A DNA stretch of 64,000 bases from contig JBBRDV010000002.1 of the NCBI GenBank assembly GCA_038203565.1, positions 14,283-78,282 of the forward strand, written 5' to 3'. A program made the position numbers and the translations under genes. The notes under the pieces were generated by a model. The model ran no database searches and was not told where the DNA came from. It saw only the letters and a program-made list of their open reading frames with translations. Shown here piece by piece: positions 8,368 to 63,873 of the stretch. Source of the stretch: Atribacterota bacterium (GTDB lineage Bacteria > Atribacterota > Phoenicimicrobiia > Phoenicimicrobiales > Phoenicimicrobiaceae). Position 1 is the stretch's first letter. Every line of letters begins with the position of its first letter.

Positions 8368-9063
8368 TTATCTATTTACTCCTTCTTCTTTATTTTTATG
8401 CCAGGGTTTACCACAGGATAATTCCCCTTCTGGGCAAGGTCCTAAAATACAAGGCGGACCAGCATTTTCAAATATATTGGGCGCAATACCCTTAACTTCT
8501 TTTAACATATTCATAGCAACTTCTCTGATCTCCCATTGGGCTCGATTGCAGCATCTTAATTTAAAGATATGTAGTAATTCTCGAGCATTTGCTGTTATTA
8601 TTATTTTAGTTGTAACCGCCTGAGGCAAGATATATCTGGCATCTTCTGCCTCAATATTATAATCTAATAATAGTTGATAAATTTCATCTAATTTTTTAAT
8701 AGTATCTATATATATTTTAGCTAACTTTTTATTCTTCTCAATAGATTTTGGAATAATAAAAGTAAAGCCTTCCTTATTTATTTTAACATATCTTTGGCTT
8801 TGTTGGGAAAAAGAGGCTAGCCGATGTCTCACTAATTGATGGGAAGTAACTCTGGATATTTCTTCTATGGCGAAAGTAAAAGTAGCATGCTCCAAAACAG
8901 AATAATGTCCTAATTTCATTATTTTTTTAATTAATTTTATTATCGATTCATCGGAAAGTTTTTCTTCTAAATCTTCAATATTTAACGCAGAATAGCATAA
9001 TCTTGCTGACTGAGCTACTATTTTCTCAGGGCCCTTAGTGTAGTTTATCAACCTAACTTTCAT
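8368..9063 (-). CDS. thyX: Flavin-dependent thymidylate synthase ThyX
   Basis: RHRxxSxxxxSQRY ThyX signature (HQLVRHRLASFSQQSQRY). The ORF call to 9135 runs through the heptad repeats, so the true start is MKVRLINYT at 9063, behind a GAGAGAGG RBS. Confidence 0.85.
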   Translation of the reverse strand: MKVRLINYTKGPEKIVAQSARLCYSALNIEDLEEKLSDESIIKLIKKIMKLGHYSVLEHATFTFAIEEISRVTSHQLVRHRLASFSQQSQRYVKINKEGFTFIIPKSIEKNKKLAKIYIDTIKKLDEIYQLLLDYNIEAEDARYILPQAVTTKIIITANARELLHIFKLRCCNRAQWEIREVAMNMLKEVKGIAPNIFENAGPPCILGPCPEGELSCGKPWHKNKEEGVNR

Positions 9064-9081
9064 AGAATTAACCTCTCTCAA

Positions 9082-9123
9082 CTCGTATATCGTATATCGT
9101 ATTATATAGTATAGCGTATAGTC
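9082..9123. repeat. Heptad tandem repeats (TCGTATA x2.5, tatagtatagcgtatag)
   Basis: Seen directly, abutting the thyX RBS. Confidence 0.85.
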
Positions 9124-9128
9124 TTTAT

Positions 9129-9195
9129 CGGGCACGATGCATCGTGCCCCCCCTACATATTACTTATTACGGGCAGACACAAGGCCTGCCCCTAC
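9129..9195. repeat. Two GC-rich REP-like hairpins: gggcacgatgcatcgtgccc and gggcagacacaaggcctgcccctac
   Basis: Perfect 10-bp and 8-bp stems, each followed by the cccctac tag. Confidence 0.85.
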
Positions 9196-9811: not shown

Positions 9812-9846
9812 TTCTTCCCTCCTCTACACCGTAAAATTAGTGGATA

Positions 9847-9940
9847 GCCTGTCTGCGCCTGCCTGTGCAACCTGCCTGTGCGCCTGCACGCAGACAGGTG
9901 CAAGCACGCACAGGTAGATGAATAGTCGTTAGTCGTTAGT
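9847..9940. repeat. Complex GC-rich nested palindrome (cctgtctgcgcctgcctgtgc ... cgcagacaggtgc ...) followed by (TAGTCGT)x2
   Basis: Inverted repeats cctgcctgtgcg/cgcacagg. It belongs to the same family as the 26926 and 59894 elements, and is followed by aatagtcgttagtcgttag. Confidence 0.75.
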
Positions 9941-12895: not shown

Positions 12896-12954
12896 CTGTC
12901 TTTAAAAATAAATTATCTATTATTTTGATTTACTAATTAAGCAATCCACCAAAC

Positions 12955-15246
<2,292 letters not shown>

Positions 15247-15296
15247 GATTTTACTCCTTCCTCTATTTTTCTCCTGGTTTTTTCTTATGTGATTTT

Positions 15297-15326
15297 CGAT
15301 ATACGATATACGACATACGATATACT
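15297..15326. repeat. (CGATATA)-type heptad array: cgatatacgatatacgacatacgatatact
   Basis: Seen directly, between the stop of the 496-aa ORF and the MBL gene start. Confidence 0.85.
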
Positions 15327-22005: not shown

Positions 22006-24000
22006 TCATTTCCCGAATAAAGTTTCCTCTTTTTTTAATCTTTTTATTTCATCCCTCAGCAAGGCTGCTCTTTCAAAATCTAAATTTTTTGCTGCTTGCT
22101 TCATCTCTTTCTCCAAAGATTTTATCAATAACCATAAATTGCTCTTACTTAAGTATTTTTCATGCTCTTCGCTTACAGTAGAAAAATCTTCGGAACTATT
22201 CATGTTATTAATAACAGCAAATTCTTCTACCGTCTTAGTTATAGTTTTGGGAGTTATCTGGTATTTATGATTATATTCTGATTGTATTTCCCTTCTTCGA
22301 TTAGTTTCTTTCACTGCCCTTCTTATCGACCCAGTCATATTTTCACAATACAAAATAACTGTGCCGTTTATGTTTCTTGCTGCTCTCCCCATAGTCTGAA
22401 TTAAAGAGGTTTCTGACCTTAAAAAACCCTCTTTATCAGCATCCAAAATAGCTACTAAAGATACTTCCGGGAGGTCTAATCCTTCTCTTAAAAGATTAAC
22501 TCCTACTAATACATTAAATTTACCTAATCTTAAGTCCTTTAAAATGTTAATCCTTTCCAAAGTCTTAATCTCTGAGTGAAGATATTTTGCTTTTATATTA
22601 ATTTCTTCCAAATACTCAGCTACATCTTCAGCCATTCTTTTAGTTAAAGTAGTCACTAATACTCTCTCTTTTTTTTCTGTCCTTTTTTTTATTTCTGCTA
22701 TCAAGTTATCAATCTGATTTTTAACTGGTTTTAAAATTACCTCCGGGTCAACTAATCCTGTGGGTCTGATAATCTGTTCAACTGTTTGCTTACTTCCTTC
22801 TAATTCATATTTGGCTGGGGTTGCTGAAACGAAGATAACTTTATCCATATAATTTTCTATTTCTTTGAAATACAGTGGTCTATTATCATAGGCAGAAGGT
22901 AGACGAAAACCATATTCTACCAAACTATCCTTTCGAGACTTATCGCCCGCAAACATACCTCTTAATTGAGGAATAGTTACGTGGGATTCGTCAATAAACA
23001 TCATAAAATCAGAAGGAAAATAATCTAACAGAGTTGCCGGCGGTTCTCCTGATTTTCTTCCGCTAATATGACGAGAATAGTTCTCAATTCCACTGCAATA
23101 TCCCACTTCTTTTAACATTTCCAAATCATATTTTGTTCTTTGTTCTAATCTTTGAGCTTCCAAGAGCTTTCCCTCTTTTTTAAAATACTTTAATCTTTCT
23201 TTTAATTCTTCTTCAATATACAAAATTGCTTTTTCTAATTTATCTTTAGTGGTAACAAAGTGTTTTGCAGGATAAACTATCAATGTATCTTTTCTCTTTA
23301 TAGCTTTTCCGGTGAGAGGGTTTATCTCTAAAATTGCTTCTATTTTATCACCCCATAACTCTATACGAAAGGCATACTCTAAGTAGGAAGGAAATATTTC
23401 AATTACATCTCCTCTAACCCTAAAACATCCACGGTGAAAATCAATATCATTTCTCTCATAGTGTATATTTATAAGCCTCTCTAAAATACTATCTCTTTTG
23501 GAAATTTCGTTCTTACTAATTTTTAATACTAATTCTTGGTAATCTGTAGGAGAACCTAACCCGTATATACAAGATACACTGGCAACAATAATCACATCTC
23601 TTCTTTCCAAGAGAGAACTGGTAGCAGAGAGTCTTAAACGGTCAATTTCTTCGTTTATGGAGGAATCTTTTTCTATATAAGTATCTGTTCTCGGAATATA
23701 AGCTTCAGGTTGATAATAATCATAATAGCTTACAAAATATTCAACAGCATTATCAGGAAAAAATCTTCTAAATTCACTGCACAGTTGAGCAGCTAAGGTT
23801 TTATTATGTGAAATAACCAGAGTGGGTAATTGAACTTTTTGAATTACATTTGCCATAGTAAAAGTCTTCCCTGAACCGGTTACTCCCAGTAAAGTTTGAT
23901 ATTTGTAACCATTACGTATACCCTCTACTAATTTTTTTATAGCATGGGGCTGGTCTCCTTGAGGGGGAAAATCAGATACTAAATTAAATTCTTGAGTCAT
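22006..24000 (-). CDS. uvrB: Excinuclease ABC subunit B
   Basis: Helicase motifs (GVTGSGKT), beta-hairpin region, and a C-terminal UVR domain ([14 protein letters not shown]). Confidence 0.95.
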
Positions 24001-24080
24001 TTACAACACCTTTCTAAAACTACACTTATAATTTAATACTTATAATCTTCTTTTTACCATTAAATAATTATACACTTATT

Positions 24081-24354
24081 ATATCGTATTGCGTATATAG
24101 TATTTAGTATATAGTTAAAAAAGAAAGAGTACCCGGATAGGAGGGGCGTATCGGGTATCGAGTATCGCGGATAAGAATAGTGATGAGTAATGCGTAATAA
24201 GTAATTTGTAGGGGCACGATACATCGTGCCCAAGGCAAACAAAAGATAATAAAACAGGAAGGCACAATTCATTGTGCCCCTACACCTGAATCATATTTTT
24301 TTCACGCGATATACGATATACGATATACGATATACTATTCACTCACGACTAATT
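24081..24354. repeat. Large intergenic repeat mosaic: heptads (24081-24117, 24146-24172, 24305-24336), REP hairpins gtaggggcacgatacatcgtgccc (24208-24231) and ggcacaattcattgtgcccctac (24261-24283), and the 17-mer ctattcactcacgactaatt (24335-24354)
   Basis: Seen directly in the 370-bp region between ade and uvrB. Confidence 0.85.
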
Positions 24355-24369
24355 TAATTGGTTATTCAG

Positions 24370-26091
24370 CTAATCTACAAACAAATCTACAATTTTTGAA
24401 TTATTAACATCTACCAAGCCTTTATTGGTTATTTTAAGATGAGGAGCCACTTCTAAAGATAAAAAAGCGATACTCATAAAAGGATTGTCTACTGTAACTC
24501 CTAAATTTTGGGCAGTTTTGTAGATGGAGTCTAAATTTTCTTTTACCTCTAATAAAGGTTTATCTGACATCAGACCGGCAATAGGTAGAGGAAGTGAATT
24601 TACTATTTTTTCATCCACGGATATTGCCAATCCGCCTCCCATCTTTGAAATAGCTGCCCCGACATTTAACATATCTTTATCATTGGTACCCACAATTATA
24701 ATATTATGGGAATCATGGGCAACAGATGAGCCTAAAGCACCTTTTTTCAGGCCAATCCCTTTAACTAAACCTATATTTACTTTTTCTAAAGCATGATGTC
24801 TCTCTATTACGGCAATTTTTAAGATATCGCGCTTGGTATCAGAAACGACAAAGCCATCTTCGATTTTAGGAACTTCTATCATTTCTTCAGTAAGAATTTG
24901 GCCTGGAGTAATTTTTATAACTCTGCATTTATTACCTTTTGCCGGAATCTTGAAATCTTCGGGGTAAAGCCACTTGATATTAATTGACCCCCTGATAGGT
25001 ACCTCCAATGGTTTGGGACTTAGTTCCAACAACTCTCCGTTTTCGGCAACTAATTTTCCATTATTAAAAACTTTAAGGATATTAAAATCTTTAAAATTAT
25101 CAAAGACAACCAAATTTGCCACATAACCAGGAGCAATTGCACCTAAATTTCTTAGTCTAAAATATTCAGTAGTATTTATGGTGGCCATCCTTATAGCGGT
25201 AACAGGATCTATACCCTTCTTGATAGCAGTTTTTATAACATAATTAATATGCCCCTCTTCAATTAAATCTTTGGGGTGGCGGTCATCACAACAAAAGAAA
25301 CATCTTCGAGAATTATCAGGATTTATAAGGGGTAAAAGGTCGATTAAATTTCGAGTGACTGACCCTTCTCTCAACATAATATACATACCTAGTCTCAATT
25401 TTTCTTTAGCCTCCTCTACTGTAGTACATTCATGGTCAGATCTTATTTGAGCGGAAACATAGGCACAAAGATCCTTGCCGGATAAATTGGGAGCATGACC
25501 GTCAATACATTTTTTTGAAAATGCTACTATTTTATCTAAAACCTCAGGAATTTGGTTTAAAACTCCCGGAAAATTCATCATCTCTCCCAGCCCTAAAACC
25601 CATTTTTCGTCTAAAAGAGGGAATAAATCATTTACACTAAGATTTGCTCCGGAAGTTCCTAAAGATGAAGCAGGAACACAAGAAGGTAGCATCATAAAAA
25701 TATTTAAGGGGTTATATTTACTGGATTCTAACATATACCTGATACCTTCTAAACCCAATACATTGGCAATTTCGTGAGGATCAATTATTACTGAAGTTGT
25801 CCCCATTGGTACTACAGTCTTAGCAAATTCTGAAATTTTGACCATAGAACTTTCTAAGTGAATATGGCCATCTATAAATCCAGGAGACACATAACAATTA
25901 GAAATATCTATTTCCTTATCAGCGTCATATCCTTCCCCTAATCCTACAATCATATCTTTATAAATTGCAACATCGGAAGTATATATTTCTCCGGAAAAAA
26001 CATTAATTATCTTCCCATTTTTTAATAATAGATCTGCTCTTTCCTCTCCTCGAGCAATTTTAATAGTTTCAGCAAGACTCAAAACAATCAC
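24370..26091 (-). CDS. ade: Adenine deaminase
   Basis: Amidohydrolase HxH motif (GFIDGHIHLESS), similarity to adenine deaminase over 573 aa. The start may be the TTG about 9 nt downstream of the called GTG. Confidence 0.8.
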   Translation of the reverse strand: MIVLSLAETIKIARGEERADLLLKNGKIINVFSGEIYTSDVAIYKDMIVGLGEGYDADKEIDISNCYVSPGFIDGHIHLESSMVKISEFAKTVVPMGTTSVIIDPHEIANVLGLEGIRYMLESSKYNPLNIFMMLPSCVPASSLGTSGANLSVNDLFPLLDEKWVLGLGEMMNFPGVLNQIPEVLDKIVAFSKKCIDGHAPNLSGKDLCAYVSAQIRSDHECTTVEEAKEKLRLGMYIMLREGSVTRNLIDLLPLINPDNSRRCFFCCDDRHPKDLIEEGHINYVIKTAIKKGIDPVTAIRMATINTTEYFRLRNLGAIAPGYVANLVVFDNFKDFNILKVFNNGKLVAENGELLELSPKPLEVPIRGSINIKWLYPEDFKIPAKGNKCRVIKITPGQILTEEMIEVPKIEDGFVVSDTKRDILKIAVIERHHALEKVNIGLVKGIGLKKGALGSSVAHDSHNIIIVGTNDKDMLNVGAAISKMGGGLAISVDEKIVNSLPLPIAGLMSDKPLLEVKENLDSIYKTAQNLGVTVDNPFMSIAFLSLEVAPHLKITNKGLVDVNNSKIVDLFVD

Positions 26092-26099
26092 CCCTTCTT

Positions 26100-26139
26100 T
26101 CGTATATCGTATATCGTATATCGTATATCGTATATCGTT
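26100..26139. repeat. (TCGTATA)x5.5 perfect heptad array abutting the ade RBS
   Basis: tcgtatatcgtatatcgtatatcgtatatcgtatatcgtt. Confidence 0.9.
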
Positions 26140-26209
26140 AAAAACCTATACTTTATTAGCTATAAAATATTCTGAATACTGACTTCTTGCTTTTTTTACG
26201 AGATACGAT

Positions 26210-26824
26210 TCACGATATACTAGATAAGAGACTCTGCCAGATTGTTTCAACTTGTTTCTTCGTTTTATCTAACGTATCATTATTATCTATCACATAATCA
26301 GCCATTTTAATTTTTTCTTTCATTGGTATTTGCGATTTTATCCTCTGTGAGGCTTCATCTTTGGATAAATTGTTTCTTTTAATTAATCTCTTTACCTGCT
26401 CATCTTCATCTATATATACAACTATTATCTTATCCATTAATCTATCCATCTTAGCTTCATAGATTAAGGCAGCATCTATAATTAGTATTTTTTCCTGGTT
26501 ATGAGTTTTATCTCTTGCTAAATTTATTTCATTTTTAATCAACTTTATTATTTCAGGATGAGTAATTTCATTTAATTTTTTTAAGAGAACCTGATCTGCA
26601 AAAACTATTTTACCCAATTTTTCTCTATCAATAGTCAGGTCTTTTCTCAAAATATCTTCCCCAAATAATTTAACTATTTTCTTCCAGGCAGGTTTGTATG
26701 GTAAAATTACGCTATGGCCAAGTATATCAGCATCAATAATCTTAGCTCCCAAATCTCTAAACATTGATGCTACTGTACTTTTACCGCCTACAATTCCGCC
26801 AGTAAGACCAACAATCAATGCCAT
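26210..26824 (-). CDS. coaE: Dephospho-CoA kinase
   Basis: MALIVGLTGGIVGGKST Walker A; 204 aa. Confidence 0.85.
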   Translation of the reverse strand: MALIVGLTGGIVGGKSTVASMFRDLGAKIIDADILGHSVILPYKPAWKKIVKLFGEDILRKDLTIDREKLGKIVFADQVLLKKLNEITHPEIIKLIKNEINLARDKTHNQEKILIIDAALIYEAKMDRLMDKIIVVYIDEDEQVKRLIKRNNLSKDEASQRIKSQIPMKEKIKMADYVIDNNDTLDKTKKQVETIWQSLLSSIS

Positions 26825-26826
26825 GA

Positions 26827-27038
26827 TTCCTCCCTTAATAGTCGCTAGTCGTTAGTTATTGGTTTTTAGTGTAGGGGGCGGATTTATCCGCCCCGTTCAG
26901 TGATTATTTTCTTTCGGGCTCGATGCCTGCCTGTGCGTATCCGTACGCAGACAGGTGCAACGCACAGGCAGGCGCAGACAGGAATCGAGCCCCTACAGCA
27001 CAATATTTATTACGGGCAGACACAAGGTCTGCCCCTAC
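26827..27038. repeat. Repeat mosaic: tagtcgctagtcgttag (26838-26854), hairpin gtagggggcggatttatccgccccg (26871-26895), complex nested palindrome gggctcgat...atcgagcccctac (26926-26996), and REP gggcagacacaaggtctgcccctac (27014-27038)
   Basis: Seen directly. It fills the whole coaE-polA intergenic region. Confidence 0.85.
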
Positions 27039-29704
27039 TACTTTAACTCTGCCCAATTATTACCCGTCTTCAAATTTACTTTTATAGGAACAGAAAGTTC
27101 TAAACTATGTTCCATAATCTCTTTAATAATGGACTTGACTTTTTCTAACTCTGGCCTGTAAACCTCAAATATTAATTCATCGTGTATTTGGAGTAGTAAT
27201 CTACTTTTAAATCGCTCTTTTTTAAAGGATTCATCTATTTTAATCATAGCTAATTTTATTAAATCAGCTGCACTTCCTTGAATTGGAGCATTAATAGCAA
27301 TTCTCTCATTAAATTCACGGATTTTTCTATCTTTACTGTTTATGCCTTCCAAATATCTCCTTCGATTTAATAGAGTTAATACATAGCCCTTCTTTCGAGC
27401 TTCTTCTTTCTCCCTTTCAATATATTTTTTTACACCTTGATATCTAAAAAAATAATTATTAATATATTTTTCGGCTTCTTCTCTCCCTACCCCCAAATTG
27501 CCTGCTAACCCGTAACTACTCATTCCATAAATAATACCAAAATTAATTACCTTAGCCATTCTTCTCATTTGCTCGCTAATTATATTTTGATCAAGGTTAA
27601 ATACTCCCGAGGCAGTATGAGCATGGATATCTTCATCATTTTTAAAAGCATTAAGCAAACTTTCATCCCGAGAGAGATGAGCCAAAATACGCAACTCTAT
27701 CTGAGAATAATCTGCGGATAGCAGTACAAGTCCTTCCTCTGCGATAAAAGCTTTTCTAATTTCTCTCCCCATTTCGGTTCTAATGGGAATATTTTGAAGA
27801 TTAGGCTCACTACTGCTTAATCTTCCGGTAGAAGTAACAGTTTGATGGAAAGAAGTATGTATCCTCTTGGTTTTACTATTAACCAAAAAGGGTAATTTAT
27901 CGATATAAGTATTCTTTAACTTGTCTAATTCTCTATATTCCAGAATAAAAGACACAACCTTGTGCTGGGGAGCTAAAGTATTAAGTACCTCCGCATTGGT
28001 AGAATAGCCAGTTTTTATCTTTTTTACTACCGGCAGTTTTAATCTTTCAAAAAGTATAATACTCAACTGTTTAGGAGAATTAATATTAAATTCCGTTCCA
28101 GATAAATTATAAATAGTGTTTTTCAATTCTTCAAGGCGGGTATCCACTTGTCTGGACATCAATTTTAAAAAATCAATATTCAGTTTAATACCATTGATTT
28201 CCATTTCTCCTAATATTTTTACTAAAGGCATTTCTATTTTTCTAAATAATGAAATTAAGTTTTTTTCTTCCATTTTTTCTTCTAAAACATCTTTTAATTT
28301 CAAAATATTCTGAGCATTTTCGCAAGCTTCTGCTATGCTTATGCTCATAATAGCCTTTTTTTTAATTTCTTTATCTTCGTTTTTAAAATATTTTAAATAT
28401 TCCCAGAATAAATCCCTTAAACCATAGTTCTCTCTTGAGGGATTTAACAAATAAGCAGCAATCATAGTATCAAAATTATTTCCTTCTATTTCAACTTTAT
28501 GCCTACAAAGCAATATGAAATTAAATTTAAGGTTATGACTAATTTTAATAATTCCTTGGTTTTCAAAACATGGTCGCAAGTTACTTAAAACCAATTCGAG
28601 AGAAAGACATTTGGAATTTTCGATTAAATTTAAAGCAAATAACGGGATATAATAATTTTCACTATCTTTGAAGCTGAGTGCAATTCCTAAAATATTTGAT
28701 GAAATCGCATTGTCTGAGGAAGTAACCAAATAGAAAGAAAAATATTTCCTTTCTATAATTTTATTAGTCAATCCTTCTAATTCTTCTTCAGTGTCGACCA
28801 AATTGAATTTTAACTTAGTTTTTTCATGATTAATTTTAGGAGCAATCTTTTTTATTAGATTTTTAAATTCTAATTTTTTAAATATTTTCCACAATTCTTC
28901 GTAATTTGGCAGTTTAACTTTAAAAGAATCAAAATCGTACTTTATGGGTACTTCTCTTACTATAGTAGCCAACATTTTACTCATCTTAATCTGGTCTTCA
29001 TATTTCTTTATCTGTTCTCTCAAAGATTTCTTAGATATTTTGTCTGTATTATTCAAAATATTTTCTACACTGCCCAATTCTTTAATTAAAGCTACGGCAG
29101 TTTTTTCTCCTATACCCGGAACACCTGGAATATTATCAGATATATCCCCCTTTAATGCTAAAATATCTACTATTTTCTCCGGATCTACTCCGTATTTTTT
29201 CTTTATACCTTCTTCATCATAAATTATCACCTCGGTTACTCCCTTGATAGTAGTCATTACCTTAGTATGGGGAGAGATAAGCTGAAAAGCATCTTTATCT
29301 CCGGTAACAATAATCGTATTACAATTTCTTTTTTCTGCTTCCTTTGCAAGAGTACCAATAACATCATCTGCTTCGTAACCTTCTTTTGAACAAATAGTAA
29401 TATTATAATTATCGATAATTTCTTTAATTAGAGGAATTTGGCTGATTAATTCGTCAGGCATTTTCTTCCGATGAGCTTTGTATTCTTTAAACTCCTTATG
29501 TCGAAAAGTAGGAACAGGAGTATCAAAGGTAACTACCATATATTCTGGTTTCTCTTCTTCCAATAATCTGATTAATATCATAGTAAACCCGTAAACTGCA
29601 TTGATTATCTGGCCATAAGTGGTAGTTAATTGAGGTAAAGCATAAAAAGCACGGTAGAGCAAACCTTGTCCATCAACCAAAATAAATTTTTTCCTATTAT
29701 TCAT
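27038..29704 (-). CDS. polA: DNA polymerase I
   Basis: 5-prime nuclease domain, 3-5 exonuclease-like domain, and the polymerase motifs DYSQIELR and HDE; 888 aa. Confidence 0.95.
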   Translation of the reverse strand: MNNRKKFILVDGQGLLYRAFYALPQLTTTYGQIINAVYGFTMILIRLLEEEKPEYMVVTFDTPVPTFRHKEFKEYKAHRKKMPDELISQIPLIKEIIDNYNITICSKEGYEADDVIGTLAKEAEKRNCNTIIVTGDKDAFQLISPHTKVMTTIKGVTEVIIYDEEGIKKKYGVDPEKIVDILALKGDISDNIPGVPGIGEKTAVALIKELGSVENILNNTDKISKKSLREQIKKYEDQIKMSKMLATIVREVPIKYDFDSFKVKLPNYEELWKIFKKLEFKNLIKKIAPKINHEKTKLKFNLVDTEEELEGLTNKIIERKYFSFYLVTSSDNAISSNILGIALSFKDSENYYIPLFALNLIENSKCLSLELVLSNLRPCFENQGIIKISHNLKFNFILLCRHKVEIEGNNFDTMIAAYLLNPSRENYGLRDLFWEYLKYFKNEDKEIKKKAIMSISIAEACENAQNILKLKDVLEEKMEEKNLISLFRKIEMPLVKILGEMEINGIKLNIDFLKLMSRQVDTRLEELKNTIYNLSGTEFNINSPKQLSIILFERLKLPVVKKIKTGYSTNAEVLNTLAPQHKVVSFILEYRELDKLKNTYIDKLPFLVNSKTKRIHTSFHQTVTSTGRLSSSEPNLQNIPIRTEMGREIRKAFIAEEGLVLLSADYSQIELRILAHLSRDESLLNAFKNDEDIHAHTASGVFNLDQNIISEQMRRMAKVINFGIIYGMSSYGLAGNLGVGREEAEKYINNYFFRYQGVKKYIEREKEEARKKGYVLTLLNRRRYLEGINSKDRKIREFNERIAINAPIQGSAADLIKLAMIKIDESFKKERFKSRLLLQIHDELIFEVYRPELEKVKSIIKEIMEHSLELSVPIKVNLKTGNNWAELK

Positions 29705-29731
29705 AACTCTCTTCTTTCGTTCTATTTTTTC

Positions 29732-29760
29732 TTGACAATAAATATCACTTAACCTATAAT
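29732..29760 (+). promoter_or_regulatory. Consensus sigma-70-type promoter for tRNA-Leu: TTGACA (29732-29737), 17-nt spacer, TATAAT (29755-29760)
   Basis: Perfect -35 and -10 hexamers with 17-bp spacing; the tRNA starts about 22 nt downstream. Confidence 0.75.
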
Positions 29761-29782
29761 TTTTAAACAGAGACGCACATAT

Positions 29783-29871
29783 GCCGAAGTGGCGAAATTG
29801 GTAGACGCACTGGACTCAAAATCCAGCGAGCCTCACAGCTCGTGTCGGTTCGACTCCGACCTTCGGCACCA
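29783..29871 (+). tRNA. tRNA-Leu (anticodon CAA)
   Basis: Acceptor stem GCCGAAG/CTTCGGC, anticodon loop cuCAAaa, long variable arm, T-arm GGTTCGACTCC, and an encoded CCA. Confidence 0.9.
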
Positions 29872-29878
29872 CTTTATT

Positions 29879-29910
29879 TAGTCGTTAGTGAATAGTGATT
29901 AGTCGATATC
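29879..29910. repeat. 17-mer family copy: tagtcgttagtgaatagtgattagtcgatatc
   Basis: Seen directly, downstream of the tRNA. Confidence 0.7.
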
Positions 29911-30126
29911 ATTTAGTAAATCATCATTATAAATCAGAACTTGATTGATTAAATCAATTGCTTCTTGAGTTTCGCATTTAGGAACTAAAATTTCTACATT
30001 TCCGTTTAATTCATCTTTCCCCATTTCTAATTGGTTTAAAATAGTTACAATCCCTTTTTCTTTTAATATTTTTTCTAAATTTCTGGCTAATAAAAAATCC
30101 TTAGCGATATAAATAACTTTCCACAT
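29899..30126 (-). CDS. Small hypothetical protein (75 aa), possibly a DUF2007-like PII-fold protein
   Basis: The ORF is compact with a good start. No strong motif; the assignment is weak. Confidence 0.35.
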   Translation of the reverse strand: MWKVIYIAKDFLLARNLEKILKEKGIVTILNQLEMGKDELNGNVEILVPKCETQEAIDLINQVLIYNDDLLNDID

Positions 30127-30163
30127 TATAAATAAATCCTCTAATAGTAATTTTTATTATTCT

Positions 30164-33100
30164 TTAACATTTTTCTTTCCATATTTTTTCATCTCCTAAA
30201 ACACCACGAATCTCTTCCATAAATTTATCACCAAGGTTAACTGAATATTTTTTATCTATGGCATGTAATATAGTTTTATCCTTACCCTTAAAATGAAGTA
30301 TTACTTGACTTTTCCCTGGATATCCGTAAAATAATTCTTTCAATTTTCTTAAAAGATCAGATTCATTTTCCCCTGTGCTAATCTCAAGGTGAAGTTCTTC
30401 AGCAAGATTCTGATTCTTTTCTTCTGTTTTAGGAGTAGGTCTTTTATTTTCTACATATTTTTCTAAAAGAGATATCTTCTCAGCAATAATTTTTGTCTTT
30501 CCTTCTGCCACATCAATATGTCCTTCTGTTATGATAATCTCATCTTTTTTTATCATTTCTTTGCATTTTTCATAAACCTTAGGAAAAGCTATTATTTCTA
30601 CAGTGCCCTCTAAATCTTCTAAGGTAATAAATGCCATAAGATTCCCATTTTTGGTACTCTTTATTTTTAAATTATTAATAACTCCAGCTAAAACTACTCT
30701 ACTTTTATCTGAAAGGTTAGTTAATTCGATTGAGGTGGAAGTTATAATTTTCTTTAATTTTTCCCTGTAATCATTCAATGGGTGATAGGAAATATATAAT
30801 CCTAACATTTCCTTTTCCATAGCTAAAAGTTCATTTTTAGAAAATTCTGAAATATCCGGTAATCTATCCTGGTAATTACCGCTATTTTTATCTGGGTTAT
30901 TTTCTTCGAAAAGATCAAAGATTGAAGTCTGTCCATTCCCCTTGGATTTTTGATATTCTTGGCCACTTTTTAAGGTTACATCTAAAACTGCCAGTAATTG
31001 GGATCTTTTCGCACCGATAGAATCGAAGGCACCACATTTGATTAAACTTTCGATTACCCTCTTATTTACTACTCTTAAATCAACTCTCTGGCAAAAATCG
31101 AGTAAAGAAGTAAAATTAGAATTTCTTTTGTGTTCATCAATAATGCTTTTTATAGCTTTCTCGCCAACATTTTTTATAGCAGCCAACCCAAAGCGAATAG
31201 CCTTTCCCCCTACTACAGTAAAATTTACTAAACTCTGGTTTATATCGGGAGGCAGTATTTCAATATTCATATTCCGGCATTCTTTTATATACAAAGCTAC
31301 TTTATCATTGTTTCCCATAATACTGGTAAGCAAAGAGGCCATATATTCTAAGGTATAATGAGTTTTTAAATAGGCAGTCTGATATGAGATAAAGGCGTAA
31401 GAAACGCTGTGAGATTTATTAAAACCATATCCGGCGAAATAAGCAATCAAATCAAATATTTCAACAGCTGTATTTTTTTTAATATTATTTTTTTGAGCTC
31501 CTTTTATAAAAAGTTCCCGTTGTTTTTCCATCACTTCTTTCTGTTTTTTTCCCATAGCTTTTCGCAGGATATCTGCTTGTCCCAAAGTAAACCCGGCCAA
31601 TTCACTGGCAATCATCATAACTTGTTCCTGATAAACGATTACTCCATAAGTTTCCTTTAATATAGACTCTAAACGAGGATGAGGATATTTTATTTCTACA
31701 ATTCCCTTCTTTCTATTAATGAAATCTTCGATCATGCCGCTCCCCAAAGGTCCTGGTCTATATAATGCCAGCAAGGCAGTAATATCTTCTAAGTTTTCCG
31801 GTTTTAATCTTTTAACTAAATCTCTCATCCCTTCACTTTCTATTTGGAAAACACCAGCACAGTTTCCTTTAGATAACATTTTGTACACTTTTTTATCATC
31901 CAAAGGTATTTTGTTTATATCAACCTGTTCTCCCCGAGTATGTTTTATTATTTTTAAAGCATCACTTATTACAGTCAGGGTGCGGAGTCCTAAAAAATCC
32001 ATCTTCAATAATCCCAGTTCTTCCAATTCAGCCATAGCATACTGAGTACATATTTCTCCTTCAGCTGTCTTTTGTAAAGGAATGTAATCAGTCAGTGGCT
32101 TTCGAGAAAGAACTATACCCGCAGCATGGGTCGAGGCATGACGAGCTAAACCTTCTAAAAAAGAAGCAGTTTCAATTAACTTTTTTATATCCTCGTCACT
32201 TTCCATTAACTCTTTAAGTCGGCTTTCCATCTTTAAAGCCTTTTCGATAGTAATATTAAGTTCCCAGGGAATCATTTTAGCGATAGTATCCACCCGAGCA
32301 TAGGGAATTCCTAATGCTCTTCCTACATCTCTAACAGCAGCTCTGGCTGCCATAGTACCAAAAGTAATAATCTGAGCTACTTTATCATTACCATATTTTT
32401 TAGAAACATACTCAATTACTTCTTCTCTTCGTTCATAACAAAAATCAATATCAAAATCTGGCATACTGATTCTTTCAGGATTTAAAAATCTTTCAAACAG
32501 CAATCCGTATGCTATAGGGTCAATATTGGTAATATTCAGACAATAAGCAACTAAACTTCCTGCTGCAGAACCTCGACCAGGTCCCACCATAATTCCCTTT
32601 TCTTTGGCATATCTTACAAAATCCCACACAATTAAAAAATAAGGTTCAAATTCCATTTTTTTTATAACTGAAAGTTCGTACTCTAATCTCTCCTCTAACG
32701 GTTTGGTAGTCTCGGGGTATCTCTCATTAAGCCCTTTATAGCATAGCTCTTTTAAATAAGTATTAATATTATATTCGGGAGGAACCTTAAATTCTGGTAA
32801 TTGAGCATGCCTAAAATCTATTTCTAAATTACATCTTTCAGCAATACGGATAGTGTTTTCGATGGCTTGAGGAACTTTTGAGAAGTTTTTATTCATTTCC
32901 TCTGGAGAATTAAAATAAAATGCATCAGTGGCAAATTTTAAACGTTTAGAGTCACTTAAATTTGTAGCTGTTTGGATACACAGTAAAATTTCGTGGGCTC
33001 GGGCATCTTCTTTATTTATATAATGAATATCATTGCTCGCAACAAGAGGAATAGAAAGTTCTTGACTTATCTGAATGAGATTTTCGTTTACAATTTCCTG

Positions 33101-37880: not shown

Positions 37881-38036
37881 CTCGTATCCAGTATCGAATA
37901 TCCGGTATATAGTATAGAGTAAAGAGAAAAAATAAATAAAAGAATAACTAAAAACTTCTAAAATTTAAGAATCTTACAAATTTGCCTCAGTTATTCACTC
38001 GATACTTGATACTGGATACTGGATACTCGATACTGA
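37881..38036. repeat. Two heptad arrays flanking an AT-rich spacer: ctcgtatccagtatcgaatatccggtatatagtatagagt, and ttattcact-(NGATACT)x5
   Basis: cgatacttgatactggatactggatactcgatactgac is seen directly, between convergent hflC and the fusion gene. Confidence 0.85.
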
Positions 38037-46286: not shown

Positions 46287-46425
46287 TATCGCGTATCGAG
46301 TATTAGGTATTTCGTAAAGAGAAAGAAAAGATTCAGAAACAAAATAAGAAAGGAAAAAACAAGAGTAATTACTATTCTTTTCTTTATCTTACTACCCCGC
46401 TTATGTAAAGTTATAGATTTTTTAA
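46287..46425. repeat. Repeat element: gcgtatcgagtattaggtat heptads, then aagagaaagaaaagat ... actaccccgcttatgtaaagtt. It is paralogous to the copy at 48326-48420.
   Basis: The two ~100-bp copies share gtatcgag-aagaaagagaagaaaagat-...-ACTACCCC-...-AAAGTT. Confidence 0.65.
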
Positions 46426-48289: not shown

Positions 48290-48355
48290 GTATCAAAGAA
48301 AGTATCAAAGAAAGTATCAAAGAAAGTATCGAGCATATAGTATCGCGTATCGAGT
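48290..48355. repeat. (GTATCAAAGAAA)x3 perfect 12-mer direct repeats followed by gtatcgagcatatagtatcgcgtatcgag
   Basis: Seen directly in the divergent ABC-transporter/prsA promoter region. Confidence 0.9.
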
Positions 48356-48522
48356 TAAGAAAGAGAAGAAAAGATAAAAAAATGGTATTCTTTTTTCATC
48401 TAACTACCCCAATAAAGTTTATGATAATAGAATTTAAAATTATCTTTACTTTGATTTTGAAAAATGATAAACTTTAAACTGCATGTTACAATTTATATAT
48501 ATATTTTGGAAGGAGCTTTTTA

Positions 48523-51750: not shown

Positions 51751-51795
51751 GGAAATAGGAACCTATCTTTCCTTTTTTATCTTTTGGCATCTTTG

Positions 51796-51815
51796 GACAC
51801 GATGCATCGCACCCC
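51796..51815. repeat. REP-like hairpin ggacacgatgcatcgcacccctac
   Basis: Imperfect copy of the gggcacgatgcatcgtgcccctac family. Confidence 0.6.
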
Positions 51816-51821
51816 TACATT

Positions 51822-53015: not shown

Positions 53016-53040
53016 CTTTTCCTTTCCTTTCCATTTGTAT

Positions 53041-53125
53041 AGGGGTCAGGTCTCAACATTTGACATAAGCTATTTTTAAATTAAGCAGATAGTAAGCTTA
53101 TGTCAAATGTTGAGACCTGACCCCT
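53041..53125. repeat. 85-bp perfect palindrome: 31-bp arms aggggtcaggtctcaacatttgacataagct / agcttatgtcaaatgttgagacctgacccct with a 23-nt loop. It is flanked by tat-agggg...cccct-ac.
   Basis: Seen directly, between the ilvE stop and the aspC start. Confidence 0.9.
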
Positions 53126-53137
53126 ACTTTTTATTTT

Positions 53138-54119: not shown

Positions 54120-54180
54120 ATTCGTATCTCGTGAATCGTATCTCGTGAATCGTATCTCGTTTTTTAGCGTATAACGTATA
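54120..54180. repeat. (TCGTATCTCGTGAA)x2.8 14-nt (2x7) tandem array plus agcgtataacgtatag
   Basis: ttcgtatctcgtgaatcgtatctcgtgaatcgtatctcgt. It is the same unit as at 1951-1980. Confidence 0.9.
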
Positions 54181-58291: not shown

Positions 58292-58336
58292 TAGTCGTTA
58301 GTATATAATTAGCGTAGAGCGTACAGCGTATAGTGT
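58292..58336. repeat. 17-mer-like tagtcgttagtatataat then (GCGTANA)x3 repeats
   Basis: tagcgtagagcgtacagcgtatagtgtc seen directly, immediately upstream of the purB RBS. Confidence 0.8.
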
Positions 58337-58443: not shown

Positions 58444-58500
58444 GTAGGGGTCGGATTTATCCGACCAGAGTTTTGCGGGCTTGATAAATCAAGCCCCTAC
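58444..58500. repeat. Two GC-rich hairpins gtaggggtcggatttatccgacc and gggcttgataaatcaagcccctac
   Basis: Perfect stems cggat/atccg and gggcttgat/atcaagccc, with the cccctac tag. Confidence 0.85.
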
Positions 58501-59893: not shown

Positions 59894-60075
59894 GGGTTTG
59901 ATGCCTGCCTGTGCGTTCCCGCACCTGTCTGCGTACGGATACGCACAGGCAGGCGCAGACAGGAATCAAACCTCTACAACACATTACTTATTTCGGGCAG
60001 ACACAAGGTCTGCCCCTACTTGTACCTTACGACCTTATCTTTCTTCTTCTTTCCAACTATACGCTATACGCTATT
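59894..60075. repeat. Complex nested palindrome gggtttgat...atcaaacctctac (59894-59977), REP gggcagacacaaggtctgcccctac (59995-60019), and heptads ctatacgctatacgctatt (60057-60075)
   Basis: Seen directly. It is paralogous to 26926-27038. Confidence 0.85.
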
Positions 60076-61627: not shown

Positions 61628-61905
61628 ATAAATCCCTCCAGTTTACGCTTTTCGGTTTCTATGAAATACTTTATAAATATACAACAATTTACTATCAATA
61701 ATTTATTCACAGTAATAATTATAACATATCTTTAATTCGTAACCATATTTATTTAATATTTTTAAATTTTTTTAAAAAAAAAGAAGGACTTTTATAAATT
61801 GATGTAGTATATATATTTAGTTATGTTTAGAATGTATGATAGTAAATTAAAAAATAGTACCAAGAAAAATATTTCTCCTAATTAAATACAGTAATCTGTA
61901 TGAAA

Positions 61906-62130
61906 GTAGGGGGAGAAGTCTTTTCTTTTATAGAAAAGGAGCCGAAGGGGCACGATGTATGATACATTTAAACTCTCAGGCAAAAGGACCCTTACTGGAC
62001 AGAACTCTGGAAAGTTTTTTAATAAACACCGAAGGGGCAATTTTTTGTTATCTATTGATAACCAAAAAAAATCTCTCAGGTAAAAAGACAGAGCAGGAAT
62101 AATCTTTAAATATTCTTTTTCTGTCTTTTA
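61906..62130 (+). ncRNA. Tandem glycine riboswitch (two aptamers) with a terminator-type expression platform
   Basis: Aptamer 1: GGGGGAGAAG ... GCCGAAGGGGCA ... CUCUCAGGCAAAAGGACC. Aptamer 2: ACUCUGGAAAG ... CACCGAAGGGGCAA ... UCUCUCAGGUAAAAAGACAGAGC. Both match the glycine-riboswitch conserved cores. The hairpin aaagacagag...ctctgtcttt plus a T-tract (62083-62130) overlaps the 3-prime P1 strand of aptamer 2. Confidence 0.8.
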
Positions 62131-62175: not shown

Positions 62176-63873
62176 ATGAAATCAGATCTACAGATTGCTC
62201 AAGAAGCACAACTAAAACCGATCACCGAAATCGCTCTATCTATCGGAATAGGAGAAGACGAATTAGATCTCTACGGTAAATACAAAGCCAAGGTCACTCC
62301 GGATATCCTAAAGAGACTACAAGACCGTCCTCAAGCAAAATACATCGTAGTAACTGCCATCACTCCTACCCCTTTAGGCGAAGGTAAGACGGTAACCTCT
62401 ATCGGATTAGGCCAGGGTCTGGCTAAGATAGGTAAAAAAGTAATAAATACCCTGCGCGAACCCTCCATGGGACCGGTCTTCGGAATAAAGGGTGGAGCAG
62501 CAGGAGGAGGATATTCGCAAGTCGTTCCCATGGAAGACTTAAATCTACACTTTACCGGAGATATCCATGCGGTAGGAGCAGCCAATAACCTGCTCTGTGC
62601 TATGTTGGATACTCACCTGCAGAAAGGCAATAAATTAGGAATAGATATTCACAATATCAATATTAATCGAGTGGTGGATATCTCTGACCGAGCCCTGCGT
62701 CAAATCATCATCGGCTTAGGAGGAAAGGACAACGGTATTCCCCGCGAGACTAGCTATGATATTACCGTTGCTTCTGAGGTGATGGCTATCCTTTCTTTGG
62801 CTACTGATATCTTCGATCTTAGAGCAAGATTGGGTCGAATGACGGCAGCCTATACTACCGATAGTAAACCGGTAACTGCCGAAGACCTAAAAGCCGCAGG
62901 AGCGATGACCGTCCTTTTAAAAGATGCCTTAAAACCTAATCTCATTCAAACTTTAGAACACGGACCCTGCCTGATGCATTGCGGACCTTTTGCCAATATT
63001 GCCCATGGCAACAACTCCGTTTTGGCTGATCTAATCGCCTGTAAATTAGCGGACTATGTAGTCACCGAATCCGGTTTTGGTGCTGATATGGGTTTTGAGA
63101 AGATGTGTAATATAAAATGTCGGACCAGTGGTCTTAAAGTAGATGCTGCAGTAGTAGTATGTTCTATCCGCGCCTTAAAGATGCACGGAGGGGCTATTAA
63201 GGTAGTGGCTGGTAAACCTTTAGACCAGGAAACTTTGGCCAAAGAAGATTTAGAATCAGTGGCTAAAGGGTGTGAGAACTTAGAAAAACAGGTAGAAAAT
63301 GTTCTCCTGCACGGAGTTCCTCCCGTCGTAGTCATTAATCGATTTACTACCGATACCCCAGCTGAGATCGAACTAGTTAAAGAAAAAGCCTTAGCTGCTG
63401 GAGCAACTACTGCGGTGACCCATGAAGTCTGGGCCAAAGGGGGAGCAGGTGGAATCGAATTAGCCCAAGCGGTGGTAGAGGCTGCTAAAAAATCTAATCA
63501 TTTTCACTTTCTTTATCCCTTAGATATACCTATTAAAGAAAAGATCGAGACTATAGCCACCAAGATCTATGGCGCTGAGGGAGTTGATTATGCTCCTCTG
63601 GCTGAAAAGAAAATTAAACTTTATACTGAGTTAGGTTTTGATAAACTGCCTATGTGTATGGCTAAGACTCATCTTTCTTTATCTCATGATCCTTCCGTAA
63701 AGGGTAGACCCCGTAATTTCCGCATACCTATTCGAGATGTGAGGGCTTCAGTAGGAGCAGGTTTTCTCTATCCTCTTTTGGGAACTATGATGACTATGCC
63801 TGGATTGCCTTCTGTACCTGCGGCTATGAAAGTAGATATCGATAAAGAAGGAAAGACAGTGGGATTATTCTAA
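62176..63873 (+). CDS. fhs: Formate--tetrahydrofolate ligase
   Basis: Full-length FTHFS with the ATP-binding motif PTPLGEGKTVTSIGL; strong RBS AAGGAGG. Its GC content (~45%) and codon use differ from neighbouring genes. Confidence 0.95.
   Translation: MKSDLQIAQEAQLKPITEIALSIGIGEDELDLYGKYKAKVTPDILKRLQDRPQAKYIVVTAITPTPLGEGKTVTSIGLGQGLAKIGKKVINTLREPSMGPVFGIKGGAAGGGYSQVVPMEDLNLHFTGDIHAVGAANNLLCAMLDTHLQKGNKLGIDIHNININRVVDISDRALRQIIIGLGGKDNGIPRETSYDITVASEVMAILSLATDIFDLRARLGRMTAAYTTDSKPVTAEDLKAAGAMTVLLKDALKPNLIQTLEHGPCLMHCGPFANIAHGNNSVLADLIACKLADYVVTESGFGADMGFEKMCNIKCRTSGLKVDAAVVVCSIRALKMHGGAIKVVAGKPLDQETLAKEDLESVAKGCENLEKQVENVLLHGVPPVVVINRFTTDTPAEIELVKEKALAAGATTAVTHEVWAKGGAGGIELAQAVVEAAKKSNHFHFLYPLDIPIKEKIETIATKIYGAEGVDYAPLAEKKIKLYTELGFDKLPMCMAKTHLSLSHDPSVKGRPRNFRIPIRDVRASVGAGFLYPLLGTMMTMPGLPSVPAAMKVDIDKEGKTVGLF

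Follow-up and report, generated by a model that had tools for sequence, protein, structure and literature searches.

The closest described relatives of the repeats considered here are the repetitive extragenic palindromes (REPs) that accompany the TnpA-Y1 enzymes of subclass 2.4, which correspond to group 4 of the tyrosine transposases that are associated with REPs (RAYTs) (Quentin et al. 2018, PMC6006769; Bertels et al. 2017, PMC5581495). As described in the former study, these REPs carry a GT[AG]G ‘foot’ and a stem closed at its base by three G-C pairs, and ‘double-foot’ forms occur; the insertion of REPs in frame between the HUH and Tyr motifs of the transposase gene is presented as a trait unique to the subclass (PMC6006769). 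Table S1 of that work has 105 ‘GTAGGGGC’ strings for subclass 2.4, GTAGGGGC being the commonest REP start in it. Here, we analyze a 64-kb stretch of Atribacterota DNA (hereafter the window, as against the loci from other genomes, which carry L-numbers), the intergenic DNA of which harbors a family of GC-rich hairpins. We identify these hairpins, with a probability of roughly 0.8, as REPs of the kind linked to RAYT/TnpA-REP subclass 2.4 (Bertels group 4), assembled into mosaics resembling the bacterial interspersed mosaic elements (BIMEs), because of their anatomy, their copy number, their linkage to a RAYT gene in relatives, and their turnover between related genomes. The novelty is limited in that this is a known kind of REP, here in an Atribacterota genome; the unusual point is a 25-base copy that is letter-identical in many bacterial phyla.

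Footed hairpins in the intergenic DNA of the window

The window has a GC content of about 33% and an intergenic share of 11.6%, nearly all of its genes are on the minus strand, and its GC skew is negative throughout. Its intergenic DNA is marked by short GC-rich islands, and we count in it 16 GC-rich REP hairpin units, every one intergenic, that fall into four sequence classes (A, B, C and D). Each unit is laid out as a 5′-GTAG foot followed by a stem that opens with GGG (GGG...CCC) and encloses a loop of 2–9 nt. The foot lies directly 5′ of the stem in 15 of the 16 units (one foot of the unit at 53040-53127 is ATAG), and the three G-C pairs at the stem base (GGG...CCC) are found in classes A, B and C. 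The string GTAGGGG is seen 18 times in the window against an expectation of 3.46, a count reached in none of 100 shuffles, with 13 of the 18 sites lying within intergenic DNA. Folded as single-stranded DNA and compared with shuffled sequence, all the hairpins of the window yield z-scores of -3.6 to -15; the short units fold with -6.9 to -10.4 kcal/mol (z -3.6 to -5.8), and three long forms of 81–88 nt derive from loop insertion or extended arms. Over the same window, Rfam at gathering thresholds recovers only tRNA and a glycine riboswitch, and no RNA family over the hairpins. Our scans were anchored on GTAGGG; a generic scan for GT[AG]G followed by any 6-bp stem was dropped as too permissive, as it returned mostly AT-rich chance matches in coding DNA.

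Class A is the 25-mer GTAGGGGCAGACCTTGTGTCTGCCC, with five matches in the window at no more than 3 mismatches against 0 expected. Class B takes the form GTAGGGG(C/T)NYGAT-NNA-ATCRN(G/A)CCC (e.g., GTAGGGGCTTGATTTATCAAGCCC and GTAGGGGGGGCACGATGCATCGTGCCC), class C the form GTAGGGG(G/T)CGGATTTATCCG(C/A)CC, and class D the form GTAGGACAGACGTCTCGCCTGTC. The string GGGCACGATGCATCGTGCCC is found at 9130-9149, 24212-24231 and 51795-51814 with 0, 1 and 3 mismatches, respectively, against 0 expected. The classes are joined in a recurring mosaic of C, about 10 nt, B, a linker A(A/G)CACATTAYTYATTAC, and A, which recurs across L026, L111, L019, L049, L091 and L102, and of which 26871-27038 is one complete copy. 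In it, a REP-C with its foot on the plus strand (GTAGGGGGCGGATTTATCCGCCCC, 26871-26894; -10.4 kcal/mol, z -4.6) is the first unit of three and itself recurs at 58444-58466 and in L026 and L111. It is followed, on the minus strand, by a long form of REP-B (GTAGGGGCTCGAT...ATCGAGCCC, 26916-26996; -29.1 kcal/mol, z -6.8) with a 59-nt GC-rich palindromic loop insert, which is present in one other class B copy (59895-59977); by the conserved linker (26997-27013, reading AGCACAATATTTATTAC on the plus strand), found again at 9157-9170 and 59978-59994 and in L019, L049, L091, L102 and L111; and by the REP-A 25-mer (27014-27038; -9.9 kcal/mol, z -5.8), in whose foot the first G doubles as the final base of the polA stop codon (27038-27040). 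The interval 26827-27038 as a whole comprises one full mosaic and, immediately upstream of the ribosome-binding site of coaE, three heptads of the TAGT type.

The hairpins had been noticed before from the sequence alone, and the copies listed in that original prediction are present within a base or two: class A at 9171-9195, 12955-12979, 27014-27038 and 59995-60019 (GTAG on the minus strand), with a copy in reverse orientation at 2002-2026, and further hairpins at 26871-26894, 58444-58466, 58477-58500 and 24261-24283 that read as described. Its characterization of a REP/BIME-like family is likewise sustained by the GT[AG]G foot, the GC-rich palindrome, the high copy number, the extragenic position, the inverted dimers and the mosaics with a conserved linker. 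The bracketing of almost all hairpins by ‘gta...ctac’ holds for the inverted dimers and the long palindrome, whereas on single hairpins the GTAG foot is one-sided. What had been taken for an ‘85-bp perfect palindrome’ at 53041-53125 consists of two perfect 32-nt arms around a 23-nt loop and spans 53040-53127.

These features permit comparison with several known systems. The likeness to subclass 2.4/group 4 encompasses the GT[AG]G foot, the three G-C pairs, the ‘canonical long’ and ‘double-foot’ forms (the latter here at 53040-53127), REPs that both flank the gene and enter it in frame, the NH[IFV]H, WQ and YIxNNP motifs, and a patchy spread over many phyla. In contrast, Atribacterota were not found as hosts in the available portions of PMC6006769 or PMC5581495; the 64 kb of the window hold 16 units, among them five copies of a single 25-mer, as against an average of ~14 genome-wide occurrences of flanking 16-mers given for group 4; four REP classes coexist within it and form the C-B-linker-A mosaic; the exact 25-mer (loop CTTGTG) is absent from Table S1, the nearest entry there being GTAGGGGCAGACCGGCGCGTCTGCCC; and the RAYT is known here from the loci of relatives, not from this very genome. 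With the E. coli REPs and BIMEs and their group 2 TnpA-REP (PMC3333891, PMC3479197, PMC8266576), the window shares the GTAG foot, an imperfect GC-rich palindrome, mosaics with linkers, a REP-flanked Y1 HUH enzyme and the lack of target duplications. However, a different RAYT subclass of weak similarity (E 0.27) is involved, the stems of the window are shorter and mostly perfect, and its mosaic holds two REPs in direct orientation, B then A. The GTAG-tagged repeats of Di Nocera et al. 2013 (PMC3733652) similarly bear the tag at one end, come as singles and dimers, lie near the ends of open reading frames (ORFs), where the tag often contributes or abuts a TAG stop, and are occasionally inserted into genes in frame; the main text of that survey, as far as available, differs in featuring neither the GTAGGG string nor Clostridia, and whole-unit identity across phyla was not found in it. 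Finally, the inverted doublets at 24208-24283 and 58444-58500 recall the paired REPs termed REPINs (Bertels and Rainey 2011, PMC3116915), as do L013, L015 and L040, Petroclostridium loci in which ~50 nt separate two inverted 25-mers, but the units of the window are mostly singles or direct tandems of different classes and not symmetric doublets.

The linked Y1 HUH gene and the spread of the 25-mer

An exact-match scan of species-representative genomes with the 25-mer recovered at least 115 stretches of other genomes from at least 59 species-level assemblies (counted by contig accession). When the ORFs of these loci were clustered all-against-all, one recurrent family apart from ABC ATPases emerged among the loci listed, namely that of a Y1 HUH gene. 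Its products, of ~160–310 aa, are encoded in L047, L052, L075, L096 and L110, and in L064 as detected by tblastn. Those of L047 and L096 match the Pfam model Y1_Tnp (PF01797) with 29.7–37.8 bits against a cut-off of 23, the L110 protein has no Pfam match, and the best NCBIfam model for the family is REP_Tyr_transpos. The motifs PNHIHAI, WQRNY(Y/F)EH and YI(V/R)NNP, read from the translations, are the signatures NH[IFV]H, WQ and YIxNNP reported for subclass 2.4 (PMC6006769).

A gene of this RAYT type keeps company with the very same 25-mer in Atribacterota (L047, L075, L116 and L117) and in other phyla (L052, L064, L096 and L110). In L047, the intact gene is located between two inverted 25-mers, and the same REP-A-flanked arrangement is seen in two further Atribacterota loci, L116 (82% identical) and L117 (92%). 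In L052, L064, L075, L096 and L110, the HUH and Tyr motifs are separated by in-frame REPs, which in L052, L096 and L110 encode the peptides VGAG..SA and RADTRPAPT. The search for a cognate RAYT, which had been proposed along with the hairpins, thus succeeded in part: a Y1 HUH gene flanked by the 25-mer exists in Atribacterota relatives and in other phyla but not in the window; a gene bearing the motifs of the subclass was seen in relatives only (L047, L116 and L117 of Atribacterota, along with L096 and L110). In two Atribacterota genomes, the RAYT gene adjoins hypD, in the order hypF-hypD-RAYT in L047 (232-908) and hypD-RAYT-hypE in L075 (2774-3271), an arrangement suggestive of vertical inheritance at a fixed position. 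L075 is part of the same metagenome-assembled genome (MAG) as L097 and L102, which are close relatives of the window, and holds three 25-mers; from its RAYT, a deletion that ends at an internal REP has removed the stretch containing the W and catalytic Tyr motifs.

The association also holds in the reverse direction. Among 80 loci picked solely by similarity to the L047 protein, and kept from 489 confirmed metagenome stretches, 76 contain GT[AG]GGG hairpins. In these RAYT-selected loci, a perfect hairpin of at least 7 bp follows 213 of the 332 GTAGGGG sites, as against 1 after shuffling, and the hairpins have 41 distinct stems, indicating that the structure is conserved and the stem sequence is free. 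In a rough identity tree, the class-A-like REPs (loop C-YYY-GTG) and the class-B-like REPs (palindromic centre GCATGC or TCATGA) go with different RAYT subclades; given that both classes are present in the window, its lineage probably has or had two RAYTs.

By record title, and among the matches listed, the hosts of the 25-mer span about ten phylum-level lineages, with many MAGs of Atribacterota/Caldatribacteriota. They include the isolates Petroclostridium sp. X23, Geosporobacter ferrireducens, G. subterraneus, Sporobacter termitidis, Bacteroides sp. 51 and Oscillospiraceae WX1; further MAGs of Desulfobacterales, other Deltaproteobacteria, Planctomycetaceae, Anaerolineales, Promineifilum, Nitrospiria, Coatesbacteria and Peribacteria; and, more generally, Clostridia, Bacteroides and one unclassified proteobacterium, with the GC content of the listed loci ranging from 22% to 65%. 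As the flanks are unrelated between loci, the 25-mer is a discrete unit and not a fragment of some longer conserved stretch. An inverted partner often accompanies it, with compensating changes in the stem but with GTAGGGG and the CTTGTG loop retained. Its neighboring RAYTs share only 35–51% identity and do not form one clade. This raises the possibility, which we regard as rather doubtful, that the 25-mer GTAGGGGCAG(A/G)CCTTGTGTCTGCCC is more conserved than its presumed enzyme, unless this is an effect of sampling. Were it true, REPs or REP-RAYT pairs would pass from phylum to phylum in anoxic habitats through an as yet unknown route or, alternatively, the optimum substrate would be so narrowly defined that independent REP populations converge on it. 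Carriage by phages was rejected as the route of spread, since only 2 matches to the 25-mer were found in 2.9 million viral contigs. Separately, in L048 (an uncultured bacterium, 55% GC), six tandem copies of GGGCAGACACA, which is one arm of REP-A, are placed directly 5′ of a complete REP-A, from which it follows that REP half-sites can be amplified in tandem.

Turnover, proposed mechanism and competing explanations

The window aligns at 82–92% nucleotide identity over many kb with L029, L097, L080 and L104, and at orthologous intergenic sites of relatives that are ~90% identical, the REPs differ in presence, type and number. The site 15247-15324 has no REP in the window and three in L029; at 12896-12985, the window has one REP and L029 none, but 360 bp of heptads; the B-type dimer at 24208-24283 has D + A as its counterpart in L097; and the dimer at 58444-58500 is conserved in L080 with 2 substitutions. 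Target-site duplications are not visible, there being no direct repeats flanking 24208-24283, 58444-58500 or 53040-53127, which fits single-strand transposition of the HUH type and argues against miniature inverted-repeat transposable elements (MITEs). In another pair of orthologous Atribacterota loci, the single REP-A of L032 has an inverted REP-A dimer as its counterpart in L035, and the flank in L032 matches the spacer of that dimer in inverted orientation, which points to inversion of the spacer followed by deletion and not to simple insertion. Segments between inverted arms are seen in both orientations in this spacer as well as in the central 21 nt of the loop insert, which suggests recombination or replication through the hairpins. 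Strand and position are also biased across the Atribacterota loci: the GTAG strand coincides with the coding strand of both neighbors in 24 cases versus 6 and with the locally G-rich strand in 34 versus 14, and REP-A is nearer to the upstream stop than to the downstream start in 19 versus 8 (medians 101 and 190 nt). In the window, the distances from REP-A to the stop are 0, 7, 38 and 58 nt.

We propose that the hairpin would fold when the DNA is single-stranded, for example, at the replication fork, whereupon a small Y1 HUH endonuclease, the RAYT, would recognize foot and hairpin and would cut and rejoin the strand without target duplications. REP units and their dimers would thereby be seeded, duplicated, inverted or deleted in intergenic DNA. 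Copies installed just past stop codons may secondarily act on the 3′ end of the mRNA, and the heptad arrays and the 17-mer would be separate simple-sequence repeats that share the intergenic space. These enzymatic steps are most likely those of E. coli TnpA-REP, from the biochemistry and structure of which we carry them over (PMC3333891, PMC3479197, PMC8266576), and a working RAYT in this particular genome is inferred as well.

Several observations weigh against assigning the hairpins to a RAYT of subclass 2.4. No RAYT gene was detected in the 64-kb window by tblastn with three RAYT proteins, the only matches being peptides encoded by REPs. The linked proteins score 55.3 and 61.2 bits with the NCBIfam RayT model (NF047646), which scores best for them but has a curated cut-off of 80 that they do not reach, this being an equivalog model that was probably built on proteobacterial RayT, and their sequence match to the E. 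coli TnpA-REP structure is the weak one noted above. In the closest relative with a RAYT locus among the loci analyzed, L075, the RAYT copy is internally deleted and devoid of the Tyr motif; hence, the REPs of the window may be relics that are no longer mobilized. No clean pair of empty and filled sites was found in the L029, L097 and L080 regions or in L032/L035, which are too rearranged to define an insertion boundary. The biases of orientation and position fit equally well with processing of the lagging-strand template and with a role at the RNA level, the two being inseparable here because transcription and replication are co-oriented. To our knowledge, no RAYT of subclass 2.4 has been biochemically tested.

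These same biases, viz., the proximity of REP-A to upstream stops (19 versus 8, and 0, 7, 38 and 58 nt in the window) and the usual coincidence of the GTAG strand with the transcribed sense strand (24 versus 6), would be expected if the hairpins were RNA elements selected by the host, as terminators or as 3′-end stabilizers that block exonucleases, and not spread by a transposase; REP termini also often supply TAG stops in other species, according to the available text of PMC3733652. However, foot, stem and loop are identical at unrelated loci and across phyla, which would not come from selection for a stable hairpin alone. Copies are also found in the opposite orientation, as inverted dimers and inside the RAYT reading frame, and their presence varies among genomes that are ~90% identical. 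The classical terminator role suggested earlier fares poorly: in 24000-30200, the only stretch scanned for a T/U tract after the hairpin, a single T-rich tail was flagged among the REPs (24259-24280), REP-A being followed by GTAATAAA. Nor do both of the hairpins said to terminate exactly at stop codons do so: the genes are indeed polA and pyrG, and the polA stop overlaps the foot by 1 nt, but the pyrG stop (12986-12988) is 6 nt away from the hairpin, inside the 17-mer. We therefore consider a primary RNA function unlikely, though the REPs may have a secondary, co-opted RNA role. The framing of three inverted dimers and one long palindrome by GTAGGGG/CCCCTAC could alternatively be read as the terminal inverted repeats (GTAGGGG...CCCCTAC) of MITEs, i.e., deletion derivatives of an insertion sequence (IS) with a DDE transposase that move by cut-and-paste. 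This is exceedingly improbable, since the flanks of the borders differ (TAATTT/ACCTGA at 24208-24283, TTTTAAT/ACTAAAT at 58444-58500, and TTTGTAT/TTTTTAT at 53040-53127), most units are single one-footed hairpins of 23–27 nt, and the sole recurrently linked gene encodes a Y1 HUH enzyme and not a DDE transposase. The target-site duplications anticipated on the assumption of MITE-like mobility are accordingly not visible at the dimers, and single-strand transposition by HUH enzymes makes none. A derivation from autonomous IS200/IS605 elements (TnpA-IS200 with or without TnpB), with the hairpins as their end hairpins or palindrome relics and not REPs of a domesticated RAYT, would accord with the weak match of the linked protein to the IS200 model (30 bits) and with the taxonomically patchy, IS-like distribution described for subclass 2.4/group 4. 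Yet, the best model is REP_Tyr_transpos and not IS200; the motifs are those given for class 2 (NHIH, WQ, YIxNNP) and not for class 1 (DH[VI]H, Y[IV]ENQ); there are no tnpB and no distinct left and right ends, with the single GTAG-footed hairpins being a REP signature; and the Atribacterota gene is at the same hypD-hypE locus in two genomes. This origin is hence very improbable.

A further alternative concerns the neighbors of the hairpins. The original prediction had REPs, 17-mer and heptads co-occur in a ‘fairly fixed order’, and they could accordingly constitute one composite mobile or functional module. In the Atribacterota loci, a heptad array lies within 150 nt of 27 of the 48 REP-A copies against 5.5 by random placement, and the CTAC end of the hairpin (CCCCTAC) is joined directly to (TATTCAC/TAACGAC)n at 5 or more independent loci. 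However, the random-placement control takes no account of the joint confinement of both repeats to intergenic DNA, ~12% of the total, and in this lineage heptads are present in the majority of intergenic regions. In other phyla, REP-A shows no association with heptads (4 of 80 copies against 1.8 expected), heptamer over-representation is general in bacteria (PMC4692102), and REPs and heptads are gained or lost independently at orthologous sites. Order, orientation relative to genes, heptad unit and spacing are all variable, and even the two examples cited for the fixed order are inverted relative to the genes and differ in heptad unit and spacing. A single composite is thus improbable, and we treat the heptads as co-resident simple repeats that are frequent neighbors of REPs in this lineage, not as obligate parts of them.

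Further copies, neighboring repeats and significance

Beyond the mosaic at 26871-27038, the REPs of the window occur in several arrangements. Three plus-strand units occupy 2002-2085, comprising a REP-A variant with 2 mismatches (2002-2026), a REP-D (GTAGGACAGACGTCTCGCCTGTC, 2030-2052) and a truncated long REP-B (2056-2085). At 9130-9195, a REP-B (9130-9156, GGGCACGATGCATCGTGCCCCCCCTAC on the plus strand), the linker and a REP-A (9171-9195) are in tandem on the minus strand. The thyX ORF as listed (8368-9135) begins at a GTG inside this class B REP; as the family profile starts at residue 26, translation probably begins ~75 nt further downstream, which leaves the REP extragenic. The minus-strand REP-A at 12955-12979 abuts an exact 17-mer (12979-12995) that contains the pyrG stop, so that the pair spans 12955-12995. 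The REPIN-like inverted dimer at 24208-24283 reads GTAGGGGCACGATACATCGTGCCC ... GGCACAATTCATTGTGCCCCTAC, and a degenerate minus-strand REP-B at 51795-51818 reads GGACACGATGCATCGCACCCCTAC on the plus strand. The ‘double-foot’ long REP at 53040-53127 has GTAG on the minus strand and a degenerate ATAG on the plus strand (-36.2 kcal/mol, z -15.2), and the second inverted dimer (58444-58500) pairs a plus-strand REP-C (58444-58466) with a minus-strand REP-B (58477-58500). Finally, at 59895-60019 on the minus strand, a long REP-B with the foot GTAGAGG (59895-59977) is followed by the linker and a REP-A (59995-60019); its 59-nt insert is shared with 26916-26996, but the central 21 nt are inverted.

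A GC-rich element with a heptad-like rhythm, CCTGTCTGCGCCTGCCTGTGCG...CGCACAGGCAGGC, has four copies in the window (26929-26987, 59908-59968, 9845-9915 and 2069-2085) and none in 195 other loci. Two of the copies are within the loops of class B hairpins, with their central 21 nt mutually reverse-complementary (flip/flop). The copy at 9845-9915 is a free-standing block (CCTGTCTGCGCCTGCC...) that has no GTAG foot, is followed by TAGTCGT heptads, and is missing from the orthologous site in L029.

The 17-mer TAGTCGTTAGTGAATAG, as had been predicted, is a genuine repeat (nine matches at no more than 3 mismatches against 0.22 expected) and forms part of (TAGTNNN)n arrays. Ahead of the mosaic, the plus-strand heptads TAGTCGC TAGTCGT TAGTTAT (26839-26859), a degenerate version of it, lie 4 nt upstream of the coaE Shine-Dalgarno sequence as read on the minus strand. 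Varied heptad arrays (TCGTATA, CGATATA, ACTCGAT, TCGTATCTCGTGAA) fill most intergenic regions of the window (e.g., 1164-1199, 15297-15325, 24307-24335, 26100-26138, 37997-38034 and 54122-54160), often directly upstream of a Shine-Dalgarno sequence or just past a stop codon. Arrays of this kind are returned for the window by Tandem Repeats Finder (TRF). Period 7 accounts for 42 of the 60 tandem arrays with at least three copies in the Atribacterota loci and dominates the tandem repeats in all three sets of loci. Heptads were rejected as by-products of the RAYT or as its obligate partners, as period 7 is general, the heptamer excess is known, and there is no proximity outside Atribacterota; with low probability, heptamer arrays and tandem REP half-sites, such as those of L048 and the GC-rich block of the window, could nevertheless be by-products of the same processing of single strands. 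Heptads that adjoin start codons have been described in Beggiatoaceae, Cyanobacteria and Bacteroidetes (PMC4679880), and heptamer repeats are over-represented as a general bacterial feature (PMC4692102). The 17-mer and heptads of the window, and these alone, resemble such repeats, viz., the cyanobacterial arrays of short tandemly repeated repetitive (STRR) type and the TAACTGA repeats, in being tandem, intergenic and built of varied 7-nt units, in their position upstream of a Shine-Dalgarno sequence or start codon (26839-26859 before coaE; 58292-58308), and in changing length between relatives; they differ in their units, here TAGTCGT/TAGTGAA, TCGTATA, GTATCGA and others. Of the two units that make up the Atribacterota 17-mer (CTATTCACTAACGACTA), TATTCAC is also repeated in arrays of as many as 11 copies in Clostridia, at L088 806-886 (Petroclostridium sp. 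X23) and L051 7506-7527 (a Clostridia MAG), and both of these genomes carry the 25-mer. An exact 17-mer (29879-29895) also starts 10 nt past the 3′ end of a tRNA gene (29783-29868), which is on the plus strand among minus-strand genes.

Another intergenic module, at 46287-46410 and 48290-48410, is composed of GTATCGA-type heptads, a purine-rich/pyrimidine-rich inverted repeat (AAGAGAAAGAAAAGA ... TCTTTTCTTTATCT), and then ACTACCCC. The occurrences of ACTACCCC at ~46396 and ~48401, formerly counted as similar hairpin copies, belong to this module; no such hairpin follows them, and they are not REPs. A perfect 12-mer array, GTATCAAAGAAA x3.4, is found at 48290-48330. A glycine riboswitch aptamer (61900-62001; 59.8 bits), upstream of the plus-strand ORF 62176-63873, encloses a chance GTAGGGG at 61906.

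The identification of these hairpins as REPs gives a name and a likely mechanism to the GC-rich intergenic islands of Atribacterota, a widespread subsurface phylum with few cultured members. In practical terms, these repeats break assemblies and create spurious ORFs, the peptides GQTQGLPL, RADTRPAPT and VGADLVSA being their translations. The window adds a dense example with multiple REP classes to RAYT group 4/subclass 2.4, the least studied group of REP-associated transposases, and L047 and L116, with an intact gene flanked by its own REP, offer concrete substrates for the first biochemical test of the subclass. More generally, that one REP is identical across phyla is relevant to the question of whether REP-RAYT systems are ‘domesticated’ elements passed on vertically or are still moving between lineages.

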